A DNA stretch of 64,000 nucleotides from Candidatus Rokuibacteriota bacterium (GTDB lineage: Bacteria; Methylomirabilota; Methylomirabilia; Rokubacteriales; CSP1-6): contig JACQFL010000018.1 in the NCBI GenBank assembly GCA_016200085.1, positions 48,006 to 112,005 on the forward strand, written 5' to 3'. Under the pieces are notes generated by a model. That model saw nothing but the letters and a program-made list of their open reading frames with translations. It made no database searches and had not been told where the DNA came from. Positions within the stretch are counted from its first letter, which is position 1. Every line of letters starts with the position of its first letter. This document shows positions 47,189 to 64,000 of this stretch, one piece after another. Position numbers and translations under genes: made by a program.

Positions 47189-47189
47189 C

Positions 47190-48077: not shown

Positions 48078-49334
48078 ATGAGCACGGTGCCGCCAGCCGC
48101 TCGCCGGCGGGTCGTCGTCTTCTCTCCGTGGATAAAGTTCCGTGCGACGCCCTTCGACATGTGCGGCATCCGCGTGATGGGCTTTGACGATGCTCAGCAG
48201 GCGTTGGGCGCGCAGGACCGCGAAGCCCTCTGGCGCGCACGCCTGCCATACGTTGACCACTTCCTAAACGAAGACCGAACACCGCGGCCGTGGAATGAGA
48301 ATCCGTTGTTCTACGCCGCGGCTCCCGCCGATCCGCTCGGGGAACCGCCGGAGCAGGAGCGAGAGGTCATCGGGCTCGTGAACGCCTTCCTCTATCTCTG
48401 TGTGTTCGCGGCAAACCGCGTCGGTCCAGGCGAAATGCAGATCTATACCAATGCGAGTGATTGGGCGCTCTATGTCCATCCGGTTCACGACCCTGAGTAT
48501 TTCGCTCTCGGGGCGCGTAGGCTTTTGGGCCGGTTGAGCCACGGCGGGTTTCGTTGGAACTACTCGGTCATCTCGATGCCGATGGAGTGCACGCGCTACG
48601 AGCTCTACGACGCGGTAATCGACCGGAGCTTCGTGGATGGCGTGACAGCACTCCACGGGCGCGGTCGCGCCGCGCTCTACGTGTCCCCAGTGCGCACGTT
48701 CATGCTCGGGACCGCTGATAACCATCTCTGGAGACGCGAAGAGGATCTGCCACTCATCTGGGCGTCGGTGGAGCAGCTGAACGAATCGGAAGGCTTTGAG
48801 ACATGCGAGGCGGGACGGCGCGAACGAGCCGCCGCCGCAACTGCTCTTCGATTGCAGCCGACTCACACGGTGAGCCTAATCCGTGCCGTTGTTGGTCCTC
48901 CGCCGTCAGCGGAGTATGTGTGGGACGGAGACTTTCGGCCTGACCGACGGGGAGGAGCCACCGCGCCGACACGTGCGCGAAGAGACGGCATGCAGTTCTC
49001 GGCGCTTGAGCGCGCGCTCGACGAGCTGAACTTCGCGAGGAATCGTATTCTGCACGGAGGGCAGCGTCCAGCTCTTGAATGGGACGTCGCCACGCTCGCA
49101 CTCCTGGGCGCGAAGTTCTTCGTCCTCCTCATGAAGCGGATCCTCGCGTGGGAAGAGGTCCGTGCTTGGACCGATGCCGACGCGTGTGAAGCGATGGGGC
49201 TGCACGCGTTTGCGCGAGGTGGTCGTGCATCCTTAGTCGACGGGTATCGGGCTTACGAGCGCGCCGTCGAGGAATGCCGGCGAGAGCGCCAACGGCAGAG
49301 GATGGTCGAGGAGTTCGAGCGCGGGGCGCCGTGA
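48078..49334 (+). CDS. hypothetical protein
   Basis: 418-aa ORF, coding-like composition, no family recognised. Confidence 0.45.
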   Translation: MSTVPPAARRRVVVFSPWIKFRATPFDMCGIRVMGFDDAQQALGAQDREALWRARLPYVDHFLNEDRTPRPWNENPLFYAAAPADPLGEPPEQEREVIGLVNAFLYLCVFAANRVGPGEMQIYTNASDWALYVHPVHDPEYFALGARRLLGRLSHGGFRWNYSVISMPMECTRYELYDAVIDRSFVDGVTALHGRGRAALYVSPVRTFMLGTADNHLWRREEDLPLIWASVEQLNESEGFETCEAGRRERAAAATALRLQPTHTVSLIRAVVGPPPSAEYVWDGDFRPDRRGGATAPTRARRDGMQFSALERALDELNFARNRILHGGQRPALEWDVATLALLGAKFFVLLMKRILAWEEVRAWTDADACEAMGLHAFARGGRASLVDGYRAYERAVEECRRERQRQRMVEEFERGAP

Positions 49335-49987
49335 ATCAGCCACAGCCGCGCTACGAATGTAGTCGTGACGACCTGTTTATGTGGCCGGGTGTCGTTCGGC
49401 CGCCCGAGCTCCACGCGTACCCGACACCACGGCAGCCGGTGCGCGTGGTGTTCATCGGTTGGAACCCACCGAAGCCCTACCGAGGATTCTGGTTTCTGGA
49501 CGAGCACGACAACCTACGCGGGGAGCTTCACACAGTACTACTCAGGCTGCGGCGCGTTACCGCTCACGCTCCCGACGGATGGTTCCTCGAGGAGTTTCTC
49601 GAAGCCGGCTACTACTTCGTTCACGCCGTGAAGTGCTGGGCGAAGGCGAAATATCCTGGCTTCGGTCGAGGTGCGGTGCCACGCGACCGACGCAACATCG
49701 GCGAGCCTTTAGCCAGGGCATGCGCCGCGGCTCACCTTTGCGAGGAGCTACGGCGGCTGGCGCCGAAGCGCGTGTGCGCGCTCGGCGAGCTTGCCTACTG
49801 CGCGCTTCGCGCTCTTCAGCCCGATCTTGATCCTAAAGCGCGGCCGACCGAGGGGCGCCGTTTCGAGCTTTCAGTGGACGGGATCAATGTGCCGCTGCTG
49901 TACACCTCCTTTCCATCCTCGAGCCCGGTGCGCGGCCGGCAGTTACGGGACTTCACGCGGGGCCATCTCGAAGAGTTCTTGGCGTAA
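49274..49987 (+). CDS. uracil-DNA glycosylase superfamily protein (family 4-like)
   Basis: ..VVFIGWNPP..FVHAVKCWAKAKYPGFGRG..C..LCEELRRLAPKRVCALGELA.. fits the UDG-fold VKC..P / C..L..L..P..I..LG pattern; the likely true start is the internal MWPGVV at about 49379. Confidence 0.5.
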   Translation: MPARAPTAEDGRGVRARGAVNQPQPRYECSRDDLFMWPGVVRPPELHAYPTPRQPVRVVFIGWNPPKPYRGFWFLDEHDNLRGELHTVLLRLRRVTAHAPDGWFLEEFLEAGYYFVHAVKCWAKAKYPGFGRGAVPRDRRNIGEPLARACAAAHLCEELRRLAPKRVCALGELAYCALRALQPDLDPKARPTEGRRFELSVDGINVPLLYTSFPSSSPVRGRQLRDFTRGHLEEFLA

Positions 49988-49996
49988 AGCGACGTC

Positions 49997-50296
49997 ATGC
50001 CGCACCGGCTGACCGTATGTAATTCTGGACATTCCCGAGCCGCCGCCGTGGAACTCTCCCGTGTAGAGAGGTGGAGTCCCATGCATGGGCGGCTAGGCGC
50101 TTTCCAGGAGCTTGAAAAGTTCGTGAGGGCTCATCGCGAGTGCGGATCGCTGATTGGCGACGCTAGCCGTCCGGGAGCGGACGGCTACTTGCTCTGGGTC
50201 GAGTGCTCGTGCGGGATCCGGTTCGAGCGCTGGGTGACCCCCGAAGCCGCGGAGTATGATCTCCTCCGGTCGCGGCTCTTGAGCTCCCAGAACTGA
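49997..50296 (+). CDS. hypothetical small protein
   Basis: 99-aa ORF, possibly starting at the internal Met. Confidence 0.3.
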   Translation: MPHRLTVCNSGHSRAAAVELSRVERWSPMHGRLGAFQELEKFVRAHRECGSLIGDASRPGADGYLLWVECSCGIRFERWVTPEAAEYDLLRSRLLSSQN

Positions 50297-50350
50297 GGTC
50301 GGGGCCGTCACTCGGGAGGGCCGAGTCGGCTCCCCGTCGCCTCCTTTCTC

Positions 50351-50873
50351 ATGCGGAGGCCACCATGCGCCCCGAGACTATCCAGGTTCGGCCGCGAGGA
50401 TCTCTACGAGGAGATCTGGTCAGAGCCGCTCATCAAGGTCGCCCAAAACTACGGCATCAGCGGTACTGGCCTCTCGAAAATCTGCCGGAAGGCGGGAATC
50501 CCGCTCCCGCCCGTAGGCTACTGGCAGCAGCTCCAGTACGGCTACAAACCCGCACGTCCCCCGTTCCCGCCGTTGCGCAATGGAGCCAACATCGGTGGTC
50601 ACGATCGAGAAGCACCCGCCCAAGCCCAAGCACAGCTAGGAAGTGGAGTCCCAGCTCGCACGCGAAGAGGACGAGAAGAACCGCCGCTACGTCAACAATG
50701 TAGGCAAGGTCTCGATGAAGTTTGCCGGGGGATCATTAAATGCGCTCGCTCCGAACTCTCGCCAAATCGGAGCCCTTGCGTTCCACTCGAGCGCAAACGC
50801 TGCGTTTACCCCAACGAAGGCCTTCATTATTTCTGATGCAAGCAGTAGTCGTAGTGCTACCCGTGCAAAATAG
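50351..50873 (+). pseudogene. disrupted hypothetical gene (frameshift plus in-frame TAG)
   Basis: N-terminal part ..REDLYEEIWSEPLIKVAQNYGISGTGLSKICRKAGIPLPPVGYWQQLQYGYKP.. turns into nonsense. A different frame reads ..EPTSVVTIEKHPPKPKHS*EVESQLAREEDEKNRRYVNNVGKVSMKF.. Confidence 0.35.
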
Positions 50874-51655
50874 TGAAAAGCGGGGTCCGTGCCGAGGGCA
50901 TGAAGCGTCGCCACGCACTCGTCGACACCTATTCCCGGAGGCTTGGATTCTACTGCGCCACGATACGCCTCCAACAGCGCTGTCCGCGCGTCTGCGTCGT
51001 TGAATTCCTTGAAACCACCAAAAGGCACGTAGTTTATCTCGTTTCGATAGTTGGACTCGTCTTTGGGGTCGGTAACGTGGGCGATCTTGTGAACCAGTTC
51101 ATACTCGGCCCGTGGTGAGGTATACCGATCATAGATCTCGTAGTATCGATTCCATGCGACTGCGTGGTCCCGCCCTCTGGCTCCTCGGGAACAGACAATG
51201 TACCGATGTGCAGCCAAGTCATGGGGTATGACGTAGCACTGTAGTTCAGAACCATTTCCCCGTCGGAGGCGCGTGACGGTGCGCCCCTGGAGGCACAATA
51301 AGCTGTGGATGCTGAAGAAGCTCGCATAGTAGTTAGTGACCCGGGCCCATGTTGCATAACCTCGCCGCGCCAAAAGATATTGGCCGTAGTAGCTGTAGAG
51401 TGCCTTTTGGAAGTATTCCATTGCTTGCTCAAGGAACCGAACAGTAAGATCGGCGCCCTCAACGACAATGCCGCTGCTGATGCGGGCGTCGACGACACCA
51501 CCGGCGTCAAGCGCCGCGACACACGCCGTCGCCACAGATTGATCTGCCGCTGCATAGGGGATCGCCGCGAAGACGGCGCTTTGCTGATTCAATGCCCAGG
51601 CTTGGACGAAGCACGAATCGATGTCAGTCTTGGTGGCGTCGCCAACGACGTTCAT
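50687..51655 (-). CDS. hypothetical protein
   Basis: 322-aa ORF with lower-GC codon usage than the host backbone. Confidence 0.5.
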   Translation of the reverse strand: MNVVGDATKTDIDSCFVQAWALNQQSAVFAAIPYAAADQSVATACVAALDAGGVVDARISSGIVVEGADLTVRFLEQAMEYFQKALYSYYGQYLLARRGYATWARVTNYYASFFSIHSLLCLQGRTVTRLRRGNGSELQCYVIPHDLAAHRYIVCSRGARGRDHAVAWNRYYEIYDRYTSPRAEYELVHKIAHVTDPKDESNYRNEINYVPFGGFKEFNDADARTALLEAYRGAVESKPPGIGVDECVATLHALGTDPAFHYFARVALRLLLASEIMKAFVGVNAAFALEWNARAPIWREFGASAFNDPPANFIETLPTLLT

Positions 51656-51669: not shown

Positions 51670-51900
51670 CTAGCCGGAGAAAACGAGGCCCTTAAGGCGC
51701 TCCGTGAGTTGTGCGATGCCCGCTTCACCAACGTAAGAGACGCCTTGGCCCCGAGCGACCTTCGCTGAGAAACGAAAGGGCGTCAGCTTATCGATGTAGG
51801 GCCGGAAATCTGCCTCAGTGACTCTCAGCCCGCGCTTGTCAGAAACCCTGATACCTCGTCGGCGCATATCTCGGTGGCGTCCCGAGTGGTGTGGAAATAG
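51670..51900 (-). pseudogene. C-terminal gene fragment, possibly the 3' end of the IS-disrupted DGQHR gene
   Basis: ..GIRVSDKRGLRVTEADFRPYIDKLTPFRFSAKVARGQGVSYVGEAGIAQLTERLKGLVFSG* is the protein-like tail of the 544-aa track ORF, which is otherwise antisense to the transposase. Confidence 0.3.
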
Positions 51901-53300
51901 AGAAATGGCGCATTCTTCCGGTGGGAAGTCCCACCACCAACCGGCCGTCCGGCAAGACGGCCGCCGGAGGAATGCGCTATGGCGAAGCGTATCAGGAAGT
52001 CGGAGCGGCTGCCTGAAGATCGGCCGGCCGCGCTGGGCGAGTTGATTCATGCCCAGGTCCGGGTCGCGATCGAGACGGCCGTGCACGAAGAGCTGGCGAT
52101 CGCGCTCGGGGCCGGGCGCTACGAGCGCCACGACGGGCGGCGCGGCTACCGCAACGGCCTCAAGACGCGCACCCTGACGGGCCCGACCGGGCCGCTGGCC
52201 CTCACGCTGCCCCGCGCCACGCTGGGGGCGCCGAGCCGCGAATGGTGCTCGACGATCGTGCCGCGCTATCAGCGCCGGATGCGCGAGGTGAACGAGACGG
52301 TGATCGCGACGTACTTGGCCGGGGGGAACCAGCGGCGGATCCGCGGCGCGCTGCAGCCGCTGCTCAAGGCGGCGCCGCTTTCCAAGAGCGCGGTCTCCCG
52401 GATCGTCGCCACGCTGAAAGATGGGCTGACGGCCTGGACCGCGCGCTCGCTCACCGAGGTTGACCTCGTCTACCTCTATCTCGACGCCGTGTGCGTGCGG
52501 GTGCGCAGCGCGGGCAAGGTCGCGAGCGTGCCCGTGCTGACGGCCGTGGCCGTGCTCGCCGACGGCCGCAAGGAGTTGCTCGCGCTGGAGCTGTGCGGCA
52601 GCGAATCGGGCGACGCGTGGCGGGACTTCGTCGCGGACTTGCAGGCCCGCGGGCTCCGCGCGCCGCTCCTGGCGATCATCGACGGCAATCCGGGCCTGCG
52701 CCTGGCCCTGAGCCGGACGTGGCCGGCGACGGCCGTGCAGCGTTGCGCCGTCCACAAGCTCCGCAACCTCGAGCGTAAGGCGCCCAAGCACGCGCTCGAC
52801 GAGCTCCGCGAGGACTTTCATCGCATCGTCTATGCGGCGTCCGCCGACGCGGGCCGCGCGGCGTACACGACCTTCGAACGCAAGTGGGCGAAGCGCTGTC
52901 CCGGCGTCGGGCGCAGCCTCCACGAGGGCGGCGCGGAGTTGCTGACCTTTTTCACCTTTCCGAAGGCGCAGTGGAAGACGCTGCGCACCACGAACGTGAT
53001 CGAACGGCTCAATGAGGAATTCCGCCGGCGCGTGAAGACGCAGGGCTCGCTGCCGACCGAGGATGCCGCGCTGATCCTGCTCTTCAGCCTGGTCGCCAGC
53101 GGGCAGATCAAGCTGCGGAAGATCGATGGGCACGCGACGATCGCGACCGTCATCAGCAAGCGGCTGCGGCCCGCGGCGTGACCCCCCCGAGCCGGGCTCT
53201 TGCGCTTTGCGTCCAGGGACGAGAGAATCGCGATCGCTCAGAGCCTCGGAGAGCGACGATCGCGAGCGAGGCAATACCCTGATATCCCCCTCGCCGCGAT
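51880..53300 (+). mobile_element. IS256-family insertion sequence (boundaries approximate)
   Basis: single transposase gene flanked by about 100 bp of non-coding ends; it sits between a 5' gene body and a protein-like 3' fragment on the minus strand. Confidence 0.7.
51979..53181 (+). CDS. IS256-family (Mutator-like) transposase
   Basis: 400 aa; ..DLVYLYLDAVCVRVR..LLAIIDGNPGLRLAL..AVQRCAVHKLRNL..NVIERLNEEFRRR.. matches the IS256 DDE transposase pattern. Confidence 0.9.
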   Translation: MAKRIRKSERLPEDRPAALGELIHAQVRVAIETAVHEELAIALGAGRYERHDGRRGYRNGLKTRTLTGPTGPLALTLPRATLGAPSREWCSTIVPRYQRRMREVNETVIATYLAGGNQRRIRGALQPLLKAAPLSKSAVSRIVATLKDGLTAWTARSLTEVDLVYLYLDAVCVRVRSAGKVASVPVLTAVAVLADGRKELLALELCGSESGDAWRDFVADLQARGLRAPLLAIIDGNPGLRLALSRTWPATAVQRCAVHKLRNLERKAPKHALDELREDFHRIVYAASADAGRAAYTTFERKWAKRCPGVGRSLHEGGAELLTFFTFPKAQWKTLRTTNVIERLNEEFRRRVKTQGSLPTEDAALILLFSLVASGQIKLRKIDGHATIATVISKRLRPAA

Positions 53301-54251
53301 TCACGACGGTGTCGGTCGCGACCGCCGATCGATGGAATGCCGGAGGATCGCCTCTCGATTTTCCACATCAAGCGGGACGCCACCCATATCTCCGATCATG
53401 TCTTCAAACAGATTGAGAGCCGCGGAGACGCCCACGTACTTACAGAGGAGAAACTCCTTATTGTTCCACTCGCGCGGGTAGGCTGCCGCAAGAACCTTGA
53501 AGTATGTCATCAGCACTCTGAGCTGAAGCGCTTCCTCAAAGAAGTCCGCATCCTCGGTGTGGAAAATGTGCCCTCGTTTCAAGAGCTTCTTGAGCGCCGT
53601 CATGAACGACGAAAGGCTGATGATGCGACCGGCGCCACCGACCATCCCAATCTTGTCGTGCCACGGAGAGTCGCGGTCCTCGTTCAACGAACTGACGAGG
53701 TAGTAAGCCCGCCGGTCCTCGAACTCCACCCATTCCGTTTGGCGGAGCATTGGTATCAGGTCATACACAAGGGAAGGATTGATCTTCCTTTGAGTGCCGT
53801 TGATCGTCCGGAACACAAGAGCTTTGAACTCATCAGGCAGGTCTATAAAGGCCGAAACGACAAGTGGAAGGTCGACGGAGCCGGAGTACTCATCATCGAA
53901 CGACCAGAGGCGGTGCTGTCCGTCCAAGACAAACGCCTCTGCACTCGGTCGATTAGGTATATGGATATAGTTGTCTCTGAAATACGCGTCGGCGCTTAGG
54001 GACACAATAATTGCGTTGGGAAGCAGAGGAGGACCGGCGGTTCGGCCCTGCAGATAGTCGCCGATTTCGCGTAGGCGGCTTGCGTTGAGGCCTCGTTGAA
54101 TTCCCTGTCGATTTTCTCGGGTTCTCTCGCTCGTATACGAAACGCTCAAGAGAGTCTTCGCCGTGAGTGAGAAGACGTAGAAGGTGAAATCTCCTTGGCT
54201 AATCGGTAACGCTGGAACTGGTGGTAGAAATCCGTTGGTCTTGTTAGGCAT
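53301..54251 (-). CDS. DGQHR-domain protein (DndB-like paralog), probably 3'-disrupted by the IS
   Basis: 316 aa with ..AFVLDGQHRLWSF..; the ORF ends a few codons into the IS-proximal sequence. Confidence 0.7.
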   Translation of the reverse strand: MPNKTNGFLPPVPALPISQGDFTFYVFSLTAKTLLSVSYTSERTRENRQGIQRGLNASRLREIGDYLQGRTAGPPLLPNAIIVSLSADAYFRDNYIHIPNRPSAEAFVLDGQHRLWSFDDEYSGSVDLPLVVSAFIDLPDEFKALVFRTINGTQRKINPSLVYDLIPMLRQTEWVEFEDRRAYYLVSSLNEDRDSPWHDKIGMVGGAGRIISLSSFMTALKKLLKRGHIFHTEDADFFEEALQLRVLMTYFKVLAAAYPREWNNKEFLLCKYVGVSAALNLFEDMIGDMGGVPLDVENREAILRHSIDRRSRPTPS

Positions 54252-54339
54252 TATGGCTAACCATGGGGGTTGTTACCGGTCCGCAGTATGTAAGAAACCG
54301 ACACGATTCCCCGTCGCCGGTGGATGCACCGATACGTCG

Positions 54340-56061
54340 TTACTTGACGGGAACCGGAAGGAGGTCAAGAACATGGTCGCGGCCGCCGCCTGCCTCGATC
54401 ATACGCTCGCGCTTCGCGATAATCGCCATCGGTTCAGCTTGCTCGATGAGGTATTTCCGGAGATCGATCTCGTCATACTCCGCATCCTGGCGCGACAGCA
54501 TGTCCGCGAGAGCGCCACGTACACCCTTCGCCGCAGCCTCCACAAATTCCCGAAGCTGGTCTCTCGTCATGCCAGTTGAGATACGCTGCCAGATCGCCTC
54601 CGGCGCCTTATCACGGTATCGTTGCGCGACCAGCCTGCCGATTAGGGCCAGCACGAAGTGGCGGCCGACCTTGAGGTCGACGAGTCGACGAAGTCGGATA
54701 AGCGCGGGATCGTTCGTCCGCGCAACTTCGGCCCTGAGATAGCGTCGAAAACTGTTCAGGGCCTCCCAGAAGTGCCAGCTTATGACCAATTCCACCGCTT
54801 GCCGCCCGTAGACCTGCTGATATGTCGCCGCGGCATCGTCGAAAAGCTCCTCTTCACTGAGTGAGATCGCATCTTTCGGGCGGCCGGTGAACGCGAGATA
54901 GGCGCGACCCGCCATTTCGGACGAGATCAGTTTCCCGCGATAGCGGCGTTTGTCGGCTCGGGGCAGCGCGTCGGCTCCGCCGGCCTTCCGCTCGTAGAAG
55001 TACCCAAGGTTCTGGAACTCCTGCTCGAGTCTGCGTTGCTCGTCGTCGTTTGAGACCAAGTCCCGCGCCCGGATCGCGTTCTGACGGTTCGTCCGCTCGC
55101 TGATCCTTTCAGCGAGTTCTCCCGCTCTCGGCGGAGCGACGAAGAGGCGCACGAGTACATGAACGTTATCGGTAAGGAGTCCATCGCGATCAGCTGTCGC
55201 AATGGCAGTGGTCGTCTGGCAACCGTTGACGATACGCATGTTGAAAACCAGGATCTGGTTGTTGTCTCGGCGGCGGAAATCATCGCAGACAACGCTGATG
55301 CCGTTGTTGTATGCCCAGAAGAAGGCCTTGTCGTCTGGCTCCCGGAGGGTGGCCACGATCTTTGCGTTGACCTTGGACCGCTTGAGGGTGAGCCGGGGAT
55401 TCAGTTGGAAGATCGCGTTGCCGAGCCGGTCATAAATGGCTGCGAGATCAGAGGCTGGCGTGCTGAAGATTGCGCTTTGGGGCAGGTCCCGCGTGAAGAT
55501 CTGATTCCCAACGATGTTGAAGGTCACGGGCTGCTGTGCGCTGTGCTCGAAGTACGCGTGGAGCGTATCGAGATTAACGAAGTCCGCGGTGTGATTTGGA
55601 GGCAACGCGCCTCGTCGCCGGCGAATCTCGTCTTCCGCCTGGGGGCTGAACGTTCCTGTGACCGCGAAGATCAGGCGGACATCGTATCCTTGCGCCACGC
55701 AGGCGCGATAGTCGAGCTGCGCGGCGCGAACCTCGGCGCGGGCGGCAAGCGGAGCATTGAGCAGGCGGTCTGGGAGACCGAAGAAGGTCTCCACTTCCTC
55801 CCGCGCGACCGAATACGTGCCGTCCTGCCGGTATTTGCCCTGAACGATCGTGACGACCCTCGCGTCGTCGTCCTTGTCGAATCCGTCAACGTCGAGATCT
55901 CCGTTCTCTACCTCCGCGTCCTCAATCGCAGTGTCACGCTCGATCCCGCCTACCGACTGAAGGACGTATGCGACGAAGGCGCGATCGGGCGAGTCTTGGA
56001 TCTCCTCGGCGAGATCTTCGATTACCTCGCCGAGCCGACGGAGGAACTCCTCCCGCGTCAT
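54340..56061 (-). CDS. AIPR-like abortive-infection family protein
   Basis: 573 aa; ..VFNMRIVNGCQTTTAIA.. resembles the AIPR NGxQT core; 7-nt gap to the upstream gene. Confidence 0.5.
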   Translation of the reverse strand: MTREEFLRRLGEVIEDLAEEIQDSPDRAFVAYVLQSVGGIERDTAIEDAEVENGDLDVDGFDKDDDARVVTIVQGKYRQDGTYSVAREEVETFFGLPDRLLNAPLAARAEVRAAQLDYRACVAQGYDVRLIFAVTGTFSPQAEDEIRRRRGALPPNHTADFVNLDTLHAYFEHSAQQPVTFNIVGNQIFTRDLPQSAIFSTPASDLAAIYDRLGNAIFQLNPRLTLKRSKVNAKIVATLREPDDKAFFWAYNNGISVVCDDFRRRDNNQILVFNMRIVNGCQTTTAIATADRDGLLTDNVHVLVRLFVAPPRAGELAERISERTNRQNAIRARDLVSNDDEQRRLEQEFQNLGYFYERKAGGADALPRADKRRYRGKLISSEMAGRAYLAFTGRPKDAISLSEEELFDDAAATYQQVYGRQAVELVISWHFWEALNSFRRYLRAEVARTNDPALIRLRRLVDLKVGRHFVLALIGRLVAQRYRDKAPEAIWQRISTGMTRDQLREFVEAAAKGVRGALADMLSRQDAEYDEIDLRKYLIEQAEPMAIIAKRERMIEAGGGRDHVLDLLPVPVK

Positions 56062-56068
56062 CCGCGGG

Positions 56069-56479
56069 CTATCGGACGCCCGCGACGACGAGTTCGGCGA
56101 ACTTCAGAAGCCGGTCGCCCGGTTCTTGCGCAACCCGCTGCTCGATAAGCGAAATCCCTCCGTTCGCGTATTCCTCGGCGATCGTGAGGAGCTCTCCTTG
56201 GTCGAGGAGCACTTTCACGTCACCGGTTGCGGCAATCGCAAGCGCACGTAGGACAGGGATATCGTCCTGGGGCGAGAAGATTGACCAGGCAAAGACCTGC
56301 TGCCGGCGCTCAAGCGGCACGCGCTTGTTGAGCTGAAAGCCGAGGCAGGCGGCCACAAGGAAGAGGTCTTTCATAGTCTTGAACGGGGACTCCTCGCCCG
56401 ACGTGAGTGTCCGATAGAATTCGTGCGACGCAGCATCGACCGAAACCCGATCTCGCCGGACCTCGGCGGTCTCTTTCAT
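56069..56479 (-). CDS. small hypothetical protein (DndE-sized, follows the DndD-like gene)
   Basis: 136 aa; 4-nt ATGA overlap with the DndD-like gene, mirroring the dndD-dndE arrangement; similarity to DndE not established. Confidence 0.35.
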   Translation of the reverse strand: MKETAEVRRDRVSVDAASHEFYRTLTSGEESPFKTMKDLFLVAACLGFQLNKRVPLERRQQVFAWSIFSPQDDIPVLRALAIAATGDVKVLLDQGELLTIAEEYANGGISLIEQRVAQEPGDRLLKFAELVVAGVR

Positions 56480-58422
56480 CGCTTCACCTCGGCGATCGTC
56501 GTGCAGCTCGTCGTCTGGTCGAACTCGAGACGGTATTCCGCCCCGATCCGGTGCTGGAGGTTCTTGCGGGCGCCCTCGCGAAGCTCCTCATCCGTCACAA
56601 AGAGGACGAGCTGGTCGGCAAGTTCAGGGATGTGTTCCGTGATGTTCGCGCGGTGCTCGCCGGAGAGCCGCCCGAAGGGCGTATCCATCACAAGGGGCGC
56701 TTCCTTGCCGGAGACCTTCGCCATCGCGGTGATAAAGGCGAGGCTCAAGACCTGCCGCTCGCCGGCCGAGAGATCGGGTCGCGCGGGAAGGTTGTACCGG
56801 TCGATGACATCGAGGCTGTAGTCGTCGGTGAGCCGGATCTGCTGGAAGTGGGCTGTCTTCCAGATGAGCGTCTGGAAGATCTTTTGGGCTCGCTCCCGGA
56901 TCTGCTGGCGCATCTGCGAGGCGAAGATCTCGGCGATCTTCGTGATCGCGTCGGCTGAGTGCTGGGCGAGGACGAAGCGCCGTGTGATCGCCTGCGCCTT
57001 CTTCTCGCTTTTCTTTGCGGCTTCGATTTGCTTGCCTAGACGTTCGAGGTCGAGGTTGATCTGTTCGGTCCTGCCCTTCAGTCGGTGGATGTCCATCTCG
57101 ATCTGCTGCAAGCTGAACGCATATTCAGAGCGCTTTTTTTCGAGCTCTGCGACCTCTTCAAGATTGAAGGCGCTCAATTTCCGAGAGATCTCATCGAGCT
57201 GGGCATCGAGCTTCGCAATGTGCCCGTCGAGAGCGACCTTTTTCTCGAGAAGCGCTCGGAGCTGCCCGGGGATTTCGGCAGCCCGCCGGAGGGCGTTCCT
57301 CACGTCGCCGCCGGACTGGAGTACCAGGTCTTCAAGGTCCGAGGGGAAGGTTTTCTTCAGAAGCGTCGTGAGGTGCTCATGCTCCGGCGAGCGCGCGCTG
57401 ATCGGCCGCCCGCAAATGCATACCATCGCCTCGAGAAGGTCCTGGAGAAACTGCTGTCGGATGCCGGGCGGGATCTCCCCCTTCTCGCGCTTCTCGTCGA
57501 GGATGGCGAGCGCCTTCTGGAGCGCATCGGTCGCAAAGACCGCAGCGGCGCGATTCACGGCGTCGCGAACTGACTGACGGAGCTCGTCGCGACGCTGCTC
57601 TGCGTGCTGCAGCTCACTCGTGAGGGCAGCTCGCTGGGTCGTGAAATCTTTTACGGCGGCGATCTCCGACAAGCGCTGGTCGAGGCTTTCGAGCTGCTTT
57701 TTCGCAGCGCGATGCTCGGCCTGTTTCAGTTCGAGGTCTTTATCGATCTTGTCGAGTTCCTGCCGGCGAGCCTCATCAGCTTCGAGAAGGTTCTGGAGTT
57801 CTCCAGTCGAAGAGCTTTTCAGTTCTGTCCGGAAATCACGAGCCACGGCGTCGAGATGGGTCTTTGAGCGGTCGAGAATCTCGATATCGAGGACGTTGCG
57901 AACGGCATGCTTCACTTCGTCTTCGTGGTCTGGCCGCGCGAACTCATCGATCTTCTCGCCATCGAAGAAGAAGTATGTGCGGACATTCTCGGGCAGGATC
58001 GCGTTCAGGGTGCCGGTGGGGTTATCGACCGGCCTCGACTGCCCGTCGGGCCGGATTCGCATGAGCATGAACGTGGACTGGTCGTTGTATCGGAGCTTCG
58101 CCTCGTCCTTCAGGCGGACGCCGGAGACCTCACGTCGTGCGAGGAACCGCTCGCCGTTGTGGACGAAGGCGAGGGTCACCCGCGCCGTCACCGAGTCCCC
58201 GGGCTTTGCTTCGCTGATTGCGCGCTTGCTCATGAGCTGATCAGGCGCAAGCACCGCCTCCCCATAAAGGCACCAAGAAAGCGACGTGAAGAGTGCGGTC
58301 TTTCCTGCACCATTCTGCCCGTTGAACACGGTGATGTTCTTTGCCGGGTCGCGGGAAAAGAGGACGGTCTGGCTTGCGTAGTACTGGCGGAAGTTCTCGA
58401 TACTCAATCGGTCAAGCTTCAT
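56476..58422 (-). CDS. DndD-like SMC/ABC-type ATPase (paralog)
   Basis: starts MKLDRLSIENFRQY (GGAGG Shine-Dalgarno 8 nt upstream); Walker A FNGQNGAGKT; ..YFFFDGEKIDEF.. shared with dndD; long coiled coil; C-terminal signature ..LSAGERQVLSLAF..LVMDTPFGRLS. Confidence 0.8.
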   Translation of the reverse strand: MKLDRLSIENFRQYYASQTVLFSRDPAKNITVFNGQNGAGKTALFTSLSWCLYGEAVLAPDQLMSKRAISEAKPGDSVTARVTLAFVHNGERFLARREVSGVRLKDEAKLRYNDQSTFMLMRIRPDGQSRPVDNPTGTLNAILPENVRTYFFFDGEKIDEFARPDHEDEVKHAVRNVLDIEILDRSKTHLDAVARDFRTELKSSSTGELQNLLEADEARRQELDKIDKDLELKQAEHRAAKKQLESLDQRLSEIAAVKDFTTQRAALTSELQHAEQRRDELRQSVRDAVNRAAAVFATDALQKALAILDEKREKGEIPPGIRQQFLQDLLEAMVCICGRPISARSPEHEHLTTLLKKTFPSDLEDLVLQSGGDVRNALRRAAEIPGQLRALLEKKVALDGHIAKLDAQLDEISRKLSAFNLEEVAELEKKRSEYAFSLQQIEMDIHRLKGRTEQINLDLERLGKQIEAAKKSEKKAQAITRRFVLAQHSADAITKIAEIFASQMRQQIRERAQKIFQTLIWKTAHFQQIRLTDDYSLDVIDRYNLPARPDLSAGERQVLSLAFITAMAKVSGKEAPLVMDTPFGRLSGEHRANITEHIPELADQLVLFVTDEELREGARKNLQHRIGAEYRLEFDQTTSCTTIAEVKR

Positions 58423-58579
58423 CCCGTGCCTCCTCGTCGAGGATCTCGCGAAGCGCCTCCTTGAACCGTGGACGCTCGAGAGTGATGTTGCTCTGCTCGA
58501 ATTCAAGGACGCGCGAGACGGTGCGCTGGACATCCTCTGGGAACTGCTTGAAGAGCTCGAGTAAGACCTGTCTCACCAT
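58412..58579 (-). CDS. unannotated 55-aa small ORF
   Basis: MVRQVLLELFKQFPEDVQRTVSRVLEFEQSNITLERPRFKEALREILDEEARDEA; GAGGA Shine-Dalgarno 5 nt upstream; ATG 6 nt after the helicase stop; its stop overlaps the DndD-like ATG (ATGAAGCTTGA); missing from the ORF track. Confidence 0.45.
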   Translation of the reverse strand: MVRQVLLELFKQFPEDVQRTVSRVLEFEQSNITLERPRFKEALREILDEEARDEA

Positions 58580-58587
58580 GGCAATCC

Positions 58588-60657
58588 TCAGAAGTCGAGT
58601 ACGTGGAGGCGCTCGGCGAGATGCCAGATGGCCTCGGTCGCCGTGAAGCGGTTCGTCGCGGTATCGGCGAACTCGCGGAAGCGTCTGAGCTCGCGGCGAA
58701 GGATTGTTTGCTCCGACGGCAAGATGTCGTCGCTCATCGCTCCGGTCGGAGGCACCGCGAGGAAATCGTGGATCTCGGCCGCCTCCTTGCCCGGCGCCCG
58801 CCGAAGGATACGGCCACGACGCTGGATGAACTCGCGAGGATTCCCGCTGCTCGCAAGGATATAGGCCACGCGCGTGGGCGGCACGTCGACGCCTTCGTCG
58901 AGGCAGCGGATGGCGACGAGACCCTGGTAGATGCCCCGCTCGAAGGCGGTAAGGAGTGCTTCGCGCTCGGGAATCGACTCCTCGACGGTGAACTTGGAGA
59001 CGACGAGTCCAAGGTCGTTCCCCAGAAGGTCCACGACATCGTTGATCTGGTCAGGCGAGCTGTAGAAGAGGGAGAGCGTGACCGGCGAGTGGCGCTCCAC
59101 CGTCGCGCGAAGCTCGGGTAGCTTCTGCCTTGCGCAGTTCAGAAGGTTGGCGCGGTTCCGTAGGAGGGTCGCGAGGAGCTCGTCGTCGTCAACGCTTCCG
59201 CCTTTTGAGAAGAGCTGAGCGATTCTCTGGGTGAGGCGCTGATATTCCGCATACTCGTCGTCCTCAAGCTCCACGACGTGCGGGTGATAGCTATACGGGA
59301 CGAGGAAACCTCCCGCGATCGCGTCCTTAAGCGTGACCGTGATGAGAGTCGGCCCGAAGTATTTCGTAAGAAAGCTTGTCCCTTCTTCGTCGAACCACCG
59401 CGTCGGAGTGGCGCTGAGGCCCAGCCTGGCGTCGTAGAAATTCTCGAGAGCTTCACGCAGCTTCGGTGCGCCGAGGTGATGAACCTCGTCGGCGACGAGT
59501 ACCCGGCCAACTCGCGCATGGCCCACGATCGTCCGAAAGCGTTCAAGGGCTCCGGTGGCGTGAGTAGCGATCGCACAGACGAACGAACGTGCGCCGGCAT
59601 TCGCCTCCCCGATCTGGTTCGCGAGTGTCGAATCCCAACGGGGGGCCTCGCCATGACAGAGGATCGGATCGAATCCGAAACGCCGCGCCTCGGCCGCCCA
59701 TTGGGTGACGAGGTGCGAGAAGGGACAAAGGATCACGACCACGAAGGACGGCCGTTCCTTCGCGTAGTCCACGAGCGCGGCGAGGGCGCTCACGGTCTTC
59801 CCCGTACCGGTCGCCATTTCGAAGAACCCACGCGCGCCATGCTCAAGGAACGCCTTCACGGCGTCGCGCTGGAAATCCCGAAGCGCGAGATCGTCCGGGA
59901 TGTAGAGCCGCTGCCGGGGAAAGGGGACCGTGAGCGCCGGCGGCGCGCCGGTCGCTTCAGGGTCACGGGTCGGCCGAGCAGAGGGCTTGAACCGGAGGAG
60001 TGCCTGCCTGGCCGCCTCGGGGAAGTCCACGACGATCAGGCGCCGCGTGTCGTTTTTCCAGAGTCGATCGAACGCTTCAATCTTCGGTGGGATCCGATCC
60101 TGCGGATCGTCCCACGACCAGAAAACCTCGATCGATTCGAAGTTCGAAACGAGCCCGCCGACGGTCTCGTTCGGGGAGCCGATAAATGCGACGGCGTTCG
60201 CCTCGCGATCCGAAAAGATCCCGACCTTCTCGTGATAGATACCCATGACGTCATGCGGCGGCGCGGACATGGCGAGCTTGATCTCGAGCCTTTTCTCCGA
60301 GATCAACCAGGCAAGACATCCGAGCCGGTCTTCCTCCACCGAAGAGGAGATGAACTCGAACTGGCGGAGCAGGGCTTTCGTGATGATGTCGTCGCGCGCG
60401 GCGTACCCGCGGCGGATGGCTTCGGCATCCTCGGGCGCGAGGACCGGGCTTGCGACGAGATACATCCGGCCGTCGCCTCGAATAAACGCTGCGAGTCCAC
60501 GCGCCGCGACCGAGAGGCCGCCGCTCGTGAAGTAGCCGACGGCGCGGCGATACTCCGCGCTCACCGAAAGGCAGGGCACATAGAAGTCGTCGACGATGCT
60601 GCCCGCATCGCTTCGGTACCAAGTCCGGAGCGAGAGCTCGCGCAGGGCGCTGGTCAT
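58588..60657 (-). CDS. PLD-family nuclease - SF2 (DEAD/DEAH) helicase fusion protein
   Basis: 689 aa. N-terminal HKD motif ..HEKVGIF..FIGSPNET... Helicase motifs: Walker A MATGTGKT, DEVH (LVADEVHHL), motif VI QRRGRILR. Confidence 0.8.
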   Translation of the reverse strand: MTSALRELSLRTWYRSDAGSIVDDFYVPCLSVSAEYRRAVGYFTSGGLSVAARGLAAFIRGDGRMYLVASPVLAPEDAEAIRRGYAARDDIITKALLRQFEFISSSVEEDRLGCLAWLISEKRLEIKLAMSAPPHDVMGIYHEKVGIFSDREANAVAFIGSPNETVGGLVSNFESIEVFWSWDDPQDRIPPKIEAFDRLWKNDTRRLIVVDFPEAARQALLRFKPSARPTRDPEATGAPPALTVPFPRQRLYIPDDLALRDFQRDAVKAFLEHGARGFFEMATGTGKTVSALAALVDYAKERPSFVVVILCPFSHLVTQWAAEARRFGFDPILCHGEAPRWDSTLANQIGEANAGARSFVCAIATHATGALERFRTIVGHARVGRVLVADEVHHLGAPKLREALENFYDARLGLSATPTRWFDEEGTSFLTKYFGPTLITVTLKDAIAGGFLVPYSYHPHVVELEDDEYAEYQRLTQRIAQLFSKGGSVDDDELLATLLRNRANLLNCARQKLPELRATVERHSPVTLSLFYSSPDQINDVVDLLGNDLGLVVSKFTVEESIPEREALLTAFERGIYQGLVAIRCLDEGVDVPPTRVAYILASSGNPREFIQRRGRILRRAPGKEAAEIHDFLAVPPTGAMSDDILPSEQTILRRELRRFREFADTATNRFTATEAIWHLAERLHVLDF

Positions 60658-60719
60658 GGTGGAGTAGGGCGTCCCGCCATTACAGCGGGCGGGGTGAAAA
60701 TGTCAATAAAGTTGATATC

Positions 60720-60754
60720 TTAAGCTTCCATTCCAAAATATTAAGCTTCCTTCC
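60720..60754. promoter_or_regulatory. paired TTAAGCTTCC direct repeats (AAGCTT palindromes) in the AT-rich divergent promoter region
   Basis: TTAAGCTTCCAT and TTAAGCTTCCTT spaced 23 bp apart inside the AT-rich 60.66-60.81 kb intergenic region. Confidence 0.35.
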
Positions 60755-60812
60755 CGTCGAACTTGACTTCCAAAGCCCGTCCGCATACGCTTTCCCGCAA
60801 AGCGGGCAAGTC

Positions 60813-61949
60813 GTGAGAGGTGGAGGGACTGTGTCCGAGAAGGCGGTGCGGGATCTTCCGGAGTCCTTCTCATACGTGTTCGCCGCGCTGCGGGGCGTCC
60901 AGGCGGGCGGCGAGTACTACGTGGCCATGTGCCCGCTGAAGCTCATCCCGAAGATCTTTCTTTTCGATGAAGATGAGATTCCTCCTGACCTTCGCGCGCA
61001 GCGGGCCCTGAACCGCGCCCGGATCCCCGAGATCGCGCAATACATCGTCGAGAACCCAAAGGAGTACGTCTTCTCCTCGATAACCGCCTCGATCGACGGG
61101 CAAGTGCGGTTCGAGCCGCTCGCGGAGAGCGGCCCTCGAAGCAATCTTGGCCAGATCGTCATCCCCATGACCGCGAAGTTCATCATCAACGACGGCCAGC
61201 ACCGACGGGCGGCGATCGAAGAGGCGCTCAAGGAAAGGCCGGAGCTAGGCGACGAGACTATCTCCGTCGTCTTTTTTCTCGACAGCGGCCTCGCGCGCAG
61301 CCAGCAGATGTTCGCTGACCTTAATACGCACGCCATTCGCCCGACGAAGTCTCTCGGCATCCTCTACGATCTTCGCGACCCACAGTCACAGCTCGCGAGG
61401 AAGCTCATCAGCACCGTGCCGGTATTTAAGGGGCTCACCGAGACGGAGAAGACCACCATCTCGAACCGGTCGATCAAGCTCTTCACGTTGAGCGGCATTT
61501 ATCAGGGCACGAGGGCGCTTCTCAATAAACCGAAACAAGCCAGGGTGTCGCCACAGGAGGAAGCGCTCGCGATCGATTTCTGGACTGAGGTCGGTAGGAA
61601 CGTGCCCGAGTGGACGATGGCAAAAGAGAGAAAGGTGAGCGCCGCCGAGCTCCGTCGCGACTTCATCCACGCTCACGGCATTGCGCTCCACGCGTTAGGG
61701 ATTGTCGGTGCGGCGCTTCTTGCTGCGGAGCCCAAGCGCTGGAAGGACCGCCTGAGGGCGCTCGCGAAAGTCGATTGGTCACGTTCGAACACAAAGCTAT
61801 GGGAAGGACGCGCCATGATCGGCGGGCGCGTGAGCAAGGCTCACAACAACGTGATCCTCACGGCCGCTGTGTTGAAACGCGCGCTCGACTTGCCGCTCTC
61901 GCCTGAGGAACAGCGAGTCGAGACCCACCTGGGGAAGCGGGGAGGCTAG
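60813..61949 (+). CDS. dndB: DNA phosphorothioation-associated protein DndB
   Basis: 378 aa with ..KFIINDGQHRRAAIEEAL..; an alternative GTG start 6 codons in follows a GGAGGG Shine-Dalgarno. Confidence 0.85.
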   Translation: MRGGGTVSEKAVRDLPESFSYVFAALRGVQAGGEYYVAMCPLKLIPKIFLFDEDEIPPDLRAQRALNRARIPEIAQYIVENPKEYVFSSITASIDGQVRFEPLAESGPRSNLGQIVIPMTAKFIINDGQHRRAAIEEALKERPELGDETISVVFFLDSGLARSQQMFADLNTHAIRPTKSLGILYDLRDPQSQLARKLISTVPVFKGLTETEKTTISNRSIKLFTLSGIYQGTRALLNKPKQARVSPQEEALAIDFWTEVGRNVPEWTMAKERKVSAAELRRDFIHAHGIALHALGIVGAALLAAEPKRWKDRLRALAKVDWSRSNTKLWEGRAMIGGRVSKAHNNVILTAAVLKRALDLPLSPEEQRVETHLGKRGG

Positions 61950-61952: not shown

Positions 61953-63356
61953 ATGGAGAACAACGGAGTGCACGAGCTTGGACGAGACCGGCTCGACTCC
62001 AAGTACGAGGAGATACGTCAGGTTTACCTAAGCGATCGCCGCCCGTGGGTGATCGGCTATAGCGGCGGCAAAGACTCTACCACGGCTCTCCAACTTATCT
62101 GGTCCGCCCTCTCCAAACTTCCGAGCGCGGAGCTCACGAAGCCGGTTTACGTAATCGCCTCCGATACGCTCGTCGAGAGCCCGAAGATAGTCGACTATAT
62201 CGACGCCTCACTCGAACGGATGAACGGGGCGGCGGGGAGCGCGGGGCTTCCGCTCACTGCTCATAAGGTGAAGCCGACTCTCGAAAACACATTCTGGGTA
62301 AACCTCATCGGACGCGGCTACCCTGCTCCGTCGAAGCAGTTCAGGTGGTGCACTGACCGCCTCAAGATCGAGCCCGCAAACCGGTTCATTCTCGAAAAGG
62401 TCACCGAGCACGGAGAGGTCGTCGTCGTCCTTGGGGTCCGAAAGGGAGAGAGCGCGACGCGCGCGCAGGTTATGGCTCTCCACCGACTGAAGAACAGTCT
62501 CCTCTCTCGCCACTCACGGCTGCCGAATGCGTACGTATACACACCAGTCGAGGACTGGACGGTCGATGACGTCTGGACCTATCTCCTACAGGTCCCCTCG
62601 CCCTGGGGCAACAACAACCGTGACCTCGTGACGCTTTATCGAAATGCGCAGGCGGGAGAGTGTCCGCTCGTCGTGGATCAGGCTACGCCCTCCTGCGGCA
62701 ATAGCCGCTTCGGCTGCTGGGTCTGCACGGTGGTCACGAAGGACAAGTCCATGGAGGCGCTCATCGAGAACGGCGCGGAATGGCTCGAGCCGATGCTCGA
62801 GTACCGGGACCTGCTCTCGTCGACTCAGGACCCCGCGGTCAAAGGCCAGGTTCGGGAGTTCAAGCGGAGGAACGGCCAGGTTGCACTGAAGGACGATGGG
62901 AGCATCGTCTACGGCCCGTACAAACTTGCGGTCCGGAAGGACCTCCTCCGCCGGCTGCTTGAGCTGCAAAAACGAGTTCGCGCCGACGGTCCGAATCCGA
63001 AGGAACAACTCATTAGCCGCGAGGAGCTCGAACGTATCCGCGCTCTGTGGCGTCAGGAAGTTCAGGATTGGGAGGATTCGGTCCCAAAGATCTATCGCGA
63101 GGTGATGGGAGAGGATCTCGACTGGGTCGTTGACGAACAGCCTGGATTGTCCGGCGAGGATCGGGCGATTTTGGAGGGCATCTGCGAGCGCTACAACGTG
63201 CCGGCGGCCATGGTCGCGAAGCTTATCGATCTCGAACGTGAGTTCCACGGCATGAGTCGCCGTGCCGCGATCTATCAGCGCATTGCAGCTGTATTTGATG
63301 AAGATTGGAGATCGGAAGCCGAGGTGACGGTGCGCGAGAGGGACGCTGACCGGTGA
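61953..63356 (+). CDS. dndC: DNA phosphorothioation sulfurtransferase DndC (PAPS-reductase-like)
   Basis: 467 aa; PP-loop VIGYSGGKDSTTAL; Cys motifs ..ECPLVVDQATPSCGNSRFGCWVCT.. Confidence 0.9.
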   Translation: MENNGVHELGRDRLDSKYEEIRQVYLSDRRPWVIGYSGGKDSTTALQLIWSALSKLPSAELTKPVYVIASDTLVESPKIVDYIDASLERMNGAAGSAGLPLTAHKVKPTLENTFWVNLIGRGYPAPSKQFRWCTDRLKIEPANRFILEKVTEHGEVVVVLGVRKGESATRAQVMALHRLKNSLLSRHSRLPNAYVYTPVEDWTVDDVWTYLLQVPSPWGNNNRDLVTLYRNAQAGECPLVVDQATPSCGNSRFGCWVCTVVTKDKSMEALIENGAEWLEPMLEYRDLLSSTQDPAVKGQVREFKRRNGQVALKDDGSIVYGPYKLAVRKDLLRRLLELQKRVRADGPNPKEQLISREELERIRALWRQEVQDWEDSVPKIYREVMGEDLDWVVDEQPGLSGEDRAILEGICERYNVPAAMVAKLIDLEREFHGMSRRAAIYQRIAAVFDEDWRSEAEVTVRERDADR

Positions 63357-64000
63357 TTCTCACGCGGCTCACCGTCACGGACTTCGGCGTGTTCCGCGGC
63401 CGTCAAACTATCGCGCTCGCGCCGCGGCCCTCCCGTCCCGTCGTTCTTTTCGGCGGAAAAAACGGCGCGGGCAAGACGACGTTACTCGAAGCGGTCCGGC
63501 TGTGTCTCTACGGCTCGGGAGCGCTTGGCGCACGGACGTCCAAGGAGGCATATCTCGCGTATCTTGAGGGGCGGATTCACTCGAATCCGGACTTTCTTAT
63601 CCAGCCGATGTTCGCCTCCGTTTCGGTCGAGTTCCAGCATGCGGACGTCGGCGCCGTCCACACCTACACCGTTACACGTTCATGGGAGCGCAAAGGAGCC
63701 AACCGGATTGTCGAGCACCTTGATCTGGAGCGAGATGGCAAGGCGCTGGACGAACTGGCGGGGGAGCATTGGCAGGAATTCGTGCGGGAGCTTGTCCCTC
63801 CGGGGGTGGCCCAGCTCTTCTTCTTCGATGGGGAGAAGATTCAGCAGCTTGCGGAGGATAGCTCTGACCAGCGAACGCTCGCAGATGCGATCAAATCACT
63901 CCTCGGTCTAAACCTCGTCGAGCGGCTACAAACCGACCTCAATATTTTCCAGTCGCGGCTCACTCTCTCGGCAGAAGAGGGAGAGCCCGAGCGAGAACTC
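63353..64000 (+). CDS. dndD: DNA phosphorothioation ATPase DndD (5' portion; continues past the window)
   Basis: GTG start in a GTGA overlap with the dndC stop; VILTRLTVTDFGVFRG..LFGGKNGAGKTTLLEAVRLCLYG..LFFFDGEKIQQL..; absent from the track because it has no stop in the window. Confidence 0.8.
   Translation, partial: MILTRLTVTDFGVFRGRQTIALAPRPSRPVVLFGGKNGAGKTTLLEAVRLCLYGSGALGARTSKEAYLAYLEGRIHSNPDFLIQPMFASVSVEFQHADVGAVHTYTVTRSWERKGANRIVEHLDLERDGKALDELAGEHWQEFVRELVPPGVAQLFFFDGEKIQQLAEDSSDQRTLADAIKSLLGLNLVERLQTDLNIFQSRLTLSAEEGEPEREL

Follow-up and report, generated by a model that had tools for sequence, protein, structure and literature searches.

A probable mosaic defense locus in a Candidatus Rokubacteria genome: pbeABCD, an AIPR gene and an IS256-interrupted DGQHR-orf322 pair divergent from dndBCDE

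The stretch of DNA analyzed here, referred to below as the window, comprises 64,000 nucleotides (nt) of contig JACQFL010000018.1 (positions 48,006 to 112,005, forward strand) from assembly GCA_016200085.1, a metagenome-assembled genome (MAG) of a Candidatus Rokuibacteriota bacterium. Toward its right end, a minus-strand operon lies back to back with the dnd genes for phosphorothioate (PT) modification of DNA. The first four genes of this operon are pbeABCD, alias the CxC ABC-ATPase/DndE system, and they are followed by a gene of the AIPR/AbiU type and by a DGQHR gene that is paired with a gene designated orf322 and broken by an insertion sequence (IS). The locus is probably a mosaic of defense genes, in which pbeABCD, the AIPR gene and the DGQHR-orf322 pair form three modules on one strand of an island of lower guanine-plus-cytosine (GC) content, divergent from dndBCDE. 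The features of the locus are as follows (window positions; lengths of products in amino acids, aa).

58588-60657, minus strand: pbeA, 689 aa; N-terminal HKD/PLD nuclease domain fused to a superfamily 2 (SF2; DEVH) helicase
58412-58579, minus strand: small open reading frame (ORF) in the pbeB position, 55 aa; placed by position
56476-58422, minus strand: pbeC, 648 aa; CxC-clade ABC ATPase, a DndD paralog
56069-56479, minus strand: pbeD, 136 aa; dnd_assoc_4 protein
54340-56061, minus strand: AIPR/AbiU-type abortive-infection family protein, 573 aa
53385-54251, minus strand: DGQHR gene (ParB/DndB superfamily), 5' fragment, codons 1-290
51873-53384, plus strand: IS256-family element, 1512 bp; transposase at 51979-53181
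51670-51864, minus strand: DGQHR gene, 3' fragment, last 63 codons and stop
50687-51655, minus strand: orf322, 322 aa; no named family, HEPN-like helical fold
60658-60812: divergent intergenic region between pbeA and dndB, a putative promoter region, 155 nt, 51% GC
60813-61949, 61953-63356 and 63353-64000, plus strand: dndB, dndC and the 5' part of dndD; PT modification module

An initial annotation of this DNA had described six minus-strand genes, and all six ORFs exist, as seen in the ORF list, the translations and gene calls in two other assemblies, where the first five products (689, 55, 648, 136 and 573 aa) were reproduced by independent gene calls. The operon, however, does not end with six genes but continues past position 53301 to orf322, the seventh co-oriented gene, which starts 14 nt past the true DGQHR stop. 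Spacing at the head of the operon is tight: 8 nt separate pbeA from pbeB, the pbeB stop and pbeC ATG overlap by 11 nt (ATGAAGCTTGA), pbeC and pbeD overlap by 4 nt, and 7 nt lie between pbeD and the AIPR gene. The overlaps of 4-11 nt described earlier were confirmed, whereas the gaps, given as 6-7 nt, were nearly right and measured 7-8 nt. A gap of 88 nt separates the AIPR and DGQHR genes, so that tight coupling stops after the fifth gene. Shine-Dalgarno-like sequences (GAGGA, GGAGG and GAGG as a set) are present 5' of the 55-aa ORF (GAGGA), pbeC and pbeD. The true start of pbeC was placed at 58422 (MKLDRL, 648 aa) and not at an in-frame ATG further upstream (58533) because the junction reads as an 11-nt overlap, and the 648-aa product agrees with this start.

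GC content is ~70% up to ~46 kb of the window and ~60% from there to its end, which places the flagged genes on a compositionally distinct island. Values differ between the modules, with 53.5-59.5% for the DGQHR gene and orf322, 58-64% for the pbe genes and the AIPR gene, 69.6% for the IS and 70.6% for the host.

Genes 1-4 are identified as pbeABCD because PbeA and PbeC match the corresponding PADLOC profiles over their full length, the TIGR04095 and TIGR04062 families are matched, the motifs are present, the genes stand in A-B-C-D order and dndBCDE is divergent from them. PbeA scored 768 bits against the PADLOC PbeA profile (residues 5-675 on profile positions 2-670 of 672) and 494.9 bits, with a cutoff of 600, against TIGR04095 dnd_restrict_1 ('DNA phosphorothioation system restriction enzyme'). 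Its Pfam domains ResIII, DEAD and Helicase_C were above cutoff and PLDc_2 was weak. The fusion of an HKD nuclease to an SF2 DEVH helicase, as first proposed from the translation, was found in the motifs, which are intact: HEKVGIFSD (residue 142) and GSPN (160) for the HKD part, GTGKT (284) and DEVH (390) for the helicase.

PbeC matched the PADLOC PbeC profile over its full length with 630 bits, whereas the best DndD model gave it 249 bits, and it reached 232.6 bits with TIGR03185 DndD, the cutoff of which is 245.85. It contains a Walker A motif (GQNGAGKT, residue 35), FFFDGE (151), CIC (335, the CxC hook) and LSAGE (551). The FFFDGE motif had been pointed out as common to this protein and DndD, and it does occur in the DndD of the locus (residue 156), which is without CxC; the two proteins are 25-34% identical, over ATPase head segments only. 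The protein is not a bona fide DndD, as shown by a score below the equivalog cutoff, the CxC hook and the better fit to the PbeC profile. PbeD matched TIGR04062 ('DNA phosphorothioation-associated protein 4') with 69.3 bits (E 4e-19, cutoff 74.25), and a precomputed Pfam match to PF27807 DNA_S_mod_dnd_assoc_4 exists on a product identical to it. The PADLOC PbeD model gave a weak match (E 0.048), and PbeD is 30% identical to the protein at the same position in a Niabella locus (L008). Both TIGR04095 and TIGR04062 were flagged in 2011 by Haft's group as strictly dnd-dependent families (PMC3226654). The 55-aa ORF fills the gap between pbeA and pbeC and was called as a gene in the two other assemblies. 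It is pbeB by position only, which fits the 'rapidly evolving small protein' described for such systems (PMC10853773). The four pbe genes are co-oriented, with overlaps or gaps of 4-11 nt, and dndBCDE is divergent from them 155 nt away.

The pbeABCD genes were described as a four-gene cassette beside dndCDEA in Haloterrigena jeotgali (Xiong et al. 2019, PMC6459918), where they gave ~10^4-fold protection against virus SNJ1 that required all four genes and PT modification. Deletion of any pbe gene abolished antiviral protection while PT modification was kept, and cleavage of viral DNA by Pbe was not detected (PMC6459918). In later comparative work Pbe is a CxC ABC-ATPase system (Rakesh, Aravind and Krishnan 2024, PMC10853773; also Krishnan et al. 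2020) composed of an HKD endoDNase with SF2 helicase (PbeA), a fast-evolving small protein (PbeB), a CxC-clade ABC ATPase (PbeC) and a DndE cognate (PbeD), and it stands in tandem with canonical dnd genes in ~22% of the taxa having a Dnd modification system (PMC10853773). In the initial annotation the operon was taken to match none of the known restriction partners, a view that is wrong, since the operon is PbeABCD (PMC6459918, PMC10853773). Its more general idea of a PT-linked restriction or abortive-infection module fits, and the protection conferred by PbeABCD was PT-dependent in the published experiments (PMC6459918). PbeAC pairs are not strictly bound to PT, with only 42% within 10 kb of dndCD and many others beside methylases (PMC6459918), but the partners are still defense or modification genes.

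Like the H. jeotgali locus, this one encodes the four proteins in A-B-C-D order, tightly coupled and beside dnd modification genes. It differs in its bacterial host (a Candidatus Rokubacteria MAG) and in that its pbe genes diverge from dndBCDE, whereas those of H. jeotgali lie downstream of dndCDEA. It also differs from described PbeABCD systems in that the 55-aa PbeB is without detectable similarity to other PbeB proteins (PbeB and PbeD of H. jeotgali have 66 and 152 aa; PMC6459918) and in that the operon adds the AIPR gene and the DGQHR-orf322 pair. PT-dependent antiviral activity at this locus would be carried over by analogy from the H. jeotgali system (PMC6459918).

Several results weigh against this account of genes 1-4. 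PbeA, PbeC and PbeD each fall just below the NCBIfam trusted cutoffs of the respective TIGR families. For the 55-aa ORF, PADLOC and Pfam scans at permissive E-values found no similarity to PbeB, nor did BLASTP searches with the Niabella small protein or the DndC C-terminus as targets yield a match. Comparison of PbeD with DndE by hhalign on shallow alignments gave no signal, so the reported homology was not reproduced. Furthermore, the mechanism of Pbe is disputed, as no cleavage was seen in the experimental work (PMC6459918) and cleavage was predicted in the comparative work (PMC10853773).

Another explanation of the same genes would be that PbeC and PbeD constitute a second scanning or modification core, a duplicated DndD-DndE that diversifies the specificity of modification. 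The ABC ATPase-DndE pair has indeed been described as a core scanning apparatus that can recruit PT or methylase modules (PMC10853773). The minus-strand operon, however, contains no DndC-like gene, as already noted in the initial annotation, and no methylase gene; the HKD and helicase motifs of PbeA are intact; and pbe deletions abolish protection with PT modification remaining (PMC6459918). A second core is therefore very improbable, and the PbeABCD identity is retained. The DndFGH/DptFGH proteins, likewise restriction partners of dnd modification genes, were also considered: no protein of the window matched them, and the only hit of the PADLOC DndH models was to the DndE::HerA fusion of related loci. 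A simple replacement of DndFGH by Pbe as the restriction module has been questioned (PMC10853773). No profile of the Dpd system passed.

The modification module next door is canonical by profile, with DndB at 528.7 bits against TIGR03233 and DndC at 576.4 bits against TIGR03183, both above cutoff. The window holds the N-terminus of DndD, and in another assembly (L001) dndD (675 aa) is followed by dndE (123 aa). After dndE, a 504-aa gene (L001 1-256) is present, the visible end of which weakly matches Methyltransf_23. No dndA or other cysteine desulfurase gene was seen beside dndBCDE. Residues 402-448 of DndC (63156-63296) match PF20306 'Sp-DndD' with 34 bits and the PADLOC PbeB model weakly, suggesting that DndC carries a small-protein module fused to its C-terminus here.

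Divergence of the operon from the dnd cluster across a region of lower GC, as initially described, was confirmed over 155 nt, the GC content of which (51%) is below the ~60% of the genes on either side and the 70.6% of the host. A sigma-70-like match on the plus strand (60712-60739) is not above chance expectation, and promoter and terminator scans gave counts no higher than in shuffled sequence. The direct repeat TTAAGCTTCC occurs in this region at 60720 and 60742, 22 nt apart. It may be a candidate operator for the divergent promoters, for example a putative DndB binding site.

The fifth gene was correctly called AIPR-like: its product matches Pfam PF10592 with 142.5 bits (cutoff 25, residues 218-496) and PADLOC AbiU with 131.9 bits, compared to 44.7 bits for MzaE, which has a cutoff of 1050. 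According to a word-index search, its relatives comprise one 92% identical fragment and then proteins only ~30% identical, and the PF22879 N-terminal domain present in these ~30% identical relatives is missing from it; a scan of metagenome contigs for relatives gave none. AIPR/AbiU1 proteins are commonly encoded in restriction-modification operons (PMC2292703), and it has been proposed that they partner immunity systems in a suicide-type role (PMC3506569). The gene shares with them the AIPR domain and a restriction-like placement in an operon, although the copy in the window is very divergent. By analogy, it is most likely a back-up effector of abortive infection.

The sixth gene was called as a DGQHR gene, and the domain is present: the protein scored 134.3 bits against TIGR03187 (cutoff 58.85), with the DGQHR motif at residue 110. 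The 316-aa ORF described for it (53301-54251), however, is an artifact of an IS256-family insertion, and the true gene encodes 353 aa. Homologs are 350-356 aa long, and the protein of the window diverges from them after residue 290 according to alignment and tblastn; residues 1-290 of the ORF belong to the native gene and its last 26 aa are read from the IS. In tblastn with three homologs (P0002, P0003 and P0008), their residues 287-353 (approximately the last 65) aligned 1.5 kb downstream at 51673-51873, on the far side of the element. The IS256 transposase matches NF033543 transpos_IS256 with 286.8 bits (cutoff 150), and the element has imperfect terminal inverted repeats and a perfect 8-bp target duplication (CATATCTC) at 51865-51872 and 53385-53392. 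Its GC content of 69.6% is host-like, compared to 53.5-59.5% for the interrupted gene. Removal of the IS and one copy of the duplication yields a 353-aa DGQHR protein that matches its homologs end to end. The truncated 316-aa product also occurs in the NCBI MAG record and in the Logan assembly L002, and the L001 contig breaks off within the DGQHR gene after 302 aa, as would be expected where an element is repeated. Nearly invariant residues sit in the lost C-terminus, and the 316-aa product is therefore probably defective. Judged from sequence, the insertion splits the DGQHR gene and parts orf322 from the operon, and the DGQHR-orf322 module is probably inactive in this organism.

Assignment of the DGQHR protein to a named equivalog was not successful. 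It reached 89 bits, over nearly its full length, with DpdB (NF041060; cutoff 300) and 109 bits with TIGR04172 DGQHR_dnd_1 (cutoff 450); the NCBIfam scan gave no match to the TIGR03233 DndB equivalog, and the protein is 27% identical to the DndB of the locus over only 78 residues. All equivalog cutoffs were thus missed and only the generic TIGR03187 was passed. The protein shares with these DGQHR-domain proteins of DNA-modification systems the domain itself and placement at a dnd locus.

No Pfam, NCBIfam or PADLOC match was found for orf322, its distant relatives included, and none against PDB sequences by profile. A profile-profile comparison of orf322 with the DGQHR protein was likewise negative. 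The products of both genes are 100% identical to NCBI entries for Candidatus Rokubacteria. An AlphaFold2 (AF2) model built from 25 homologs reached a predicted local distance difference test (pLDDT) score of 89 and a predicted template modeling (pTM) score of 0.90; Foldseek against the PDB gave nothing significant. Canonical HEPN domains have a four-helix fold with a conserved R-x4-6-H motif. The modeled fold of orf322 is HEPN-like, an assignment that leaves catalytic activity aside, and its motif (R-N-x-x-N-Y) differs from the canonical one. Across the wide family only Y109, H164, R204, Y209 and E217 are invariant.

The distribution of the pair was examined in three sets. When the DGQHR alignment was used to scan species-representative genomes, 18 loci were obtained, spanning Acidobacteriota, Nitrospirales, Binatia, Bacteroidota, Thermodesulfobacteriota and others; a scan of metagenomes with the orf322 alignment yielded 38 further loci; and an exhaustive profile search for distant relatives, covering 1.84 billion proteins, yielded only 151 representatives at E ≤ 0.001. 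Where the upstream flank was readable, an orf322 homolog lay directly downstream of a DGQHR/DndB-family gene at every locus: 18 of 18 genomic, 35 of 35 metagenomic and, among the six distant relatives with usable context, 6 of 6, the upstream neighbor of the latter being a Pfam DndB-family gene in each case. The two proteins were not fused in any of the best 150 of the 151 representatives, whose listed lengths of 61-378 aa are too short for a fusion.

A dnd-type partner was present at 15 genomic and 13 metagenomic loci. The commonest cassette comprises DndC, DndD, sometimes an 80-aa ORF, a DndE::HerA/FtsK-like P-loop ATPase fusion of ~493 aa, the DGQHR protein and orf322, without a canonical DndB (L003-L018, L033-L037, L061 and L067, e.g. 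L003 4811-12023); the DndE::HerA fusion matches PADLOC mad8 and the C-terminal part of DndH. Gene order varies while the pair stays joined (L022, L030 and L031, the latter two with the order DndC-DGQHR-orf322-DndD). In Mucilaginibacter (L007 8393-9973), a GHKL ATPase (HATPase_c_3, MORC-like) stands between DndE and the DGQHR gene in place of the HerA-like fusion or AIPR, and accessory genes seem to alternate at this position. At 14 metagenomic and 5 of 6 distant loci, the partner was an adjacent DNA methyltransferase (Dam-class or N6/N4 in the distant set), including loci where no dnd gene was detected. Compact cassettes of the pair with a Dam-class or N6/N4 methyltransferase are found at L029 (3982-7793), L024 (6081-8837) and L041-L060; at L029 the pair has a Dam-like methylase on one side and a DpnII-family endonuclease on the other. 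Taken from gene neighborhoods, DGQHR-orf322 is a stable unit tied to DNA-modification modules, and its link with Pbe and AIPR genes is occasional. It is possibly the only new element of the locus, the core of which is already known.

The initial annotation had treated the operon as a single system of duplicated DndB-like and DndD-like parts. In its extended form, this explanation would make all seven genes (pbeABCD, AIPR, DGQHR and orf322) one integrated, dedicated system. The genes do share a single orientation, with tight spacing through the AIPR gene and 14 nt between DGQHR and orf322. Furthermore, Pbe-type genes recur beside the pair at two loci: in Niabella (L008) on the same strand, in the order DndC-DndD-DndE-PbeA-small ORF-PbeC-PbeD-DGQHR-orf322, which is the closest parallel to the window and is without AIPR, and at L064 in divergent orientation. 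Against integration, an AIPR gene was absent at 56 of 56 surveyed DGQHR-orf322 loci (18 genomic and 38 metagenomic), and most pair loci are without PbeA or PbeC and have DndC/D/E::HerA or just a methyltransferase. The DGQHR gene belongs to a separate module with orf322 and is broken by the IS; an 88-nt gap with a weak hairpin precedes it, and GC content differs between modules. The published PbeABCD is a four-gene cassette that works with dndCDEA (PMC6459918), and the IS-disrupted state is carried in three assemblies. One integrated system is thus unlikely, as is the single duplicated system proposed at first, and a mosaic of three modules is preferred.

Besides the window, an AIPR gene near the pair was seen only at L021. 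This stretch (360-3599) is the closest relative of the AIPR-DGQHR-orf322 segment, with a DGQHR protein 78% identical, and it is decayed: its AIPR gene, which precedes the pair and is 91% identical, has an internal deletion and frameshifts, and its orf322 is truncated after ~176 residues. Such decay, together with the GC content below that of the host and an IS256 inside a gene of the operon, might indicate that the present locus is itself in decay and non-functional, the remnant of an island gained by horizontal transfer. The genes pbeA-D, AIPR, orf322 and dndB-E are nevertheless all intact, full-length ORFs with their catalytic motifs kept. The damage is confined to one gene and due to one IS, whose perfect target duplications speak for a recent event. 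A general decay of the locus is accordingly improbable, and the mosaic is preferred as a locus with one broken gene.

The remainder of the lower-GC island (46000-50900) contains an IrrE/ImmA-type M78 peptidase (47088-47987), a UDG-superfamily protein (49274-49987) and ORFs without a family match at 46090-46746, 46739-47188 and 48078-49334. The edge of the island is occupied by a ThiF-family gene on the minus strand (43923-45329). A tRNA search for an integration site found none within the window.

With the identities, spacing, IS insertion, pairing and partner genes of the locus as observed, the biochemical activities of its products are ones that we infer, in the following scheme. The products of dndBCDE would place PT marks on host DNA. 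Scanning of DNA would fall to PbeD and the ATPase PbeC, and PbeA, as an HKD nuclease and SF2 translocase, would move along and act on DNA lacking PT. The outcome would be either a block of viral replication, as in the experimental report, or DNA cleavage, as in the comparative-genomics proposal. PbeB may serve as a small essential or regulatory subunit, and the AIPR/AbiU-type gene, close to pbeD in translation, would act as an abortive-infection back-up. In an intact pair, the DGQHR protein, as a ParB-like NTPase or DNA-binding subunit, would control its HEPN-like orf322 partner.

For the pair, a modification-reading effector resembling SspE and DndI, with its two halves on separate proteins, is preferred, albeit tentatively, because of the SspE/DndI precedent and the three-gene layout of pair plus methylase. 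In SspE and DndI, PT is sensed by a ParB-like DUF262 NTPase, which is fused to a DUF1524/HNH nickase and controls it (PMC11662687). The likeness lies in a ParB-superfamily protein with DGQ(H/Q)R beside PT modification genes. By contrast, no nuclease is fused to the DGQHR protein, which is constantly accompanied by a separate HEPN-like protein of 322 aa and not by an HNH domain, and the pair also accompanies methyltransferases where no dnd gene was detected. Identity with SspE or DndI themselves was rejected, as neither the DGQHR protein nor orf322 had an SspE/DndI profile, DUF262, DUF1524 or HNH match. That the pair represents an undescribed module portable between phosphorothioation and N6A/N4C methylation, and reading two chemically different marks, is a more doubtful proposal.

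Two observations run counter to the effector role: the DpdB model gives the DGQHR protein a better score than DndB does, and the layout of L029 is as compatible with a regulator or accessory protein as with an effector. DpdB is an accessory ATPase of modification that supplies ATPase activity for base insertion. A second explanation of the pair, the probability of which ranges from doubtful to evenly balanced, is that of a DndB-like regulator or a DpdB-like accessory ATPase of modification. DndB is an ATP-modulated repressor of dnd genes (PMC4507180), and the DGQHR protein could fill this role in the usual dnd cassette, which is without canonical DndB; the nearly full-length DpdB match of 89 bits and the separate DpnII endonuclease already present at L029 are also in keeping with a regulator or accessory protein. 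A canonical DndB is, however, also present in the window, and methyltransferases normally need no accessory ATPase. The three-gene cassettes of pair and methyltransferase are laid out like restriction-modification systems and have no other candidate effector, and ParB-like domains are PT sensors in the effectors SspE and DndI (PMC11662687). The effector therefore remains the preferred, though tentative, role of the pair.

As a further bacterial example of dndBCDE-pbeABCD, from Rokubacteria, the locus is of modest importance. It shows the gain of extra layers (AIPR and DGQHR-orf322) and a loss through IS insertion. More useful is the finding that a DGQHR/DndB-family protein and an unannotated partner of ~320 aa are always encoded side by side in many phyla. 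The minimal three-gene form, the pair plus a methylase, is small enough for a direct test of whether it is an effector, a regulator or an accessory. The role of the pair bears on what DndB-like ParB proteins do in DNA-modification systems.

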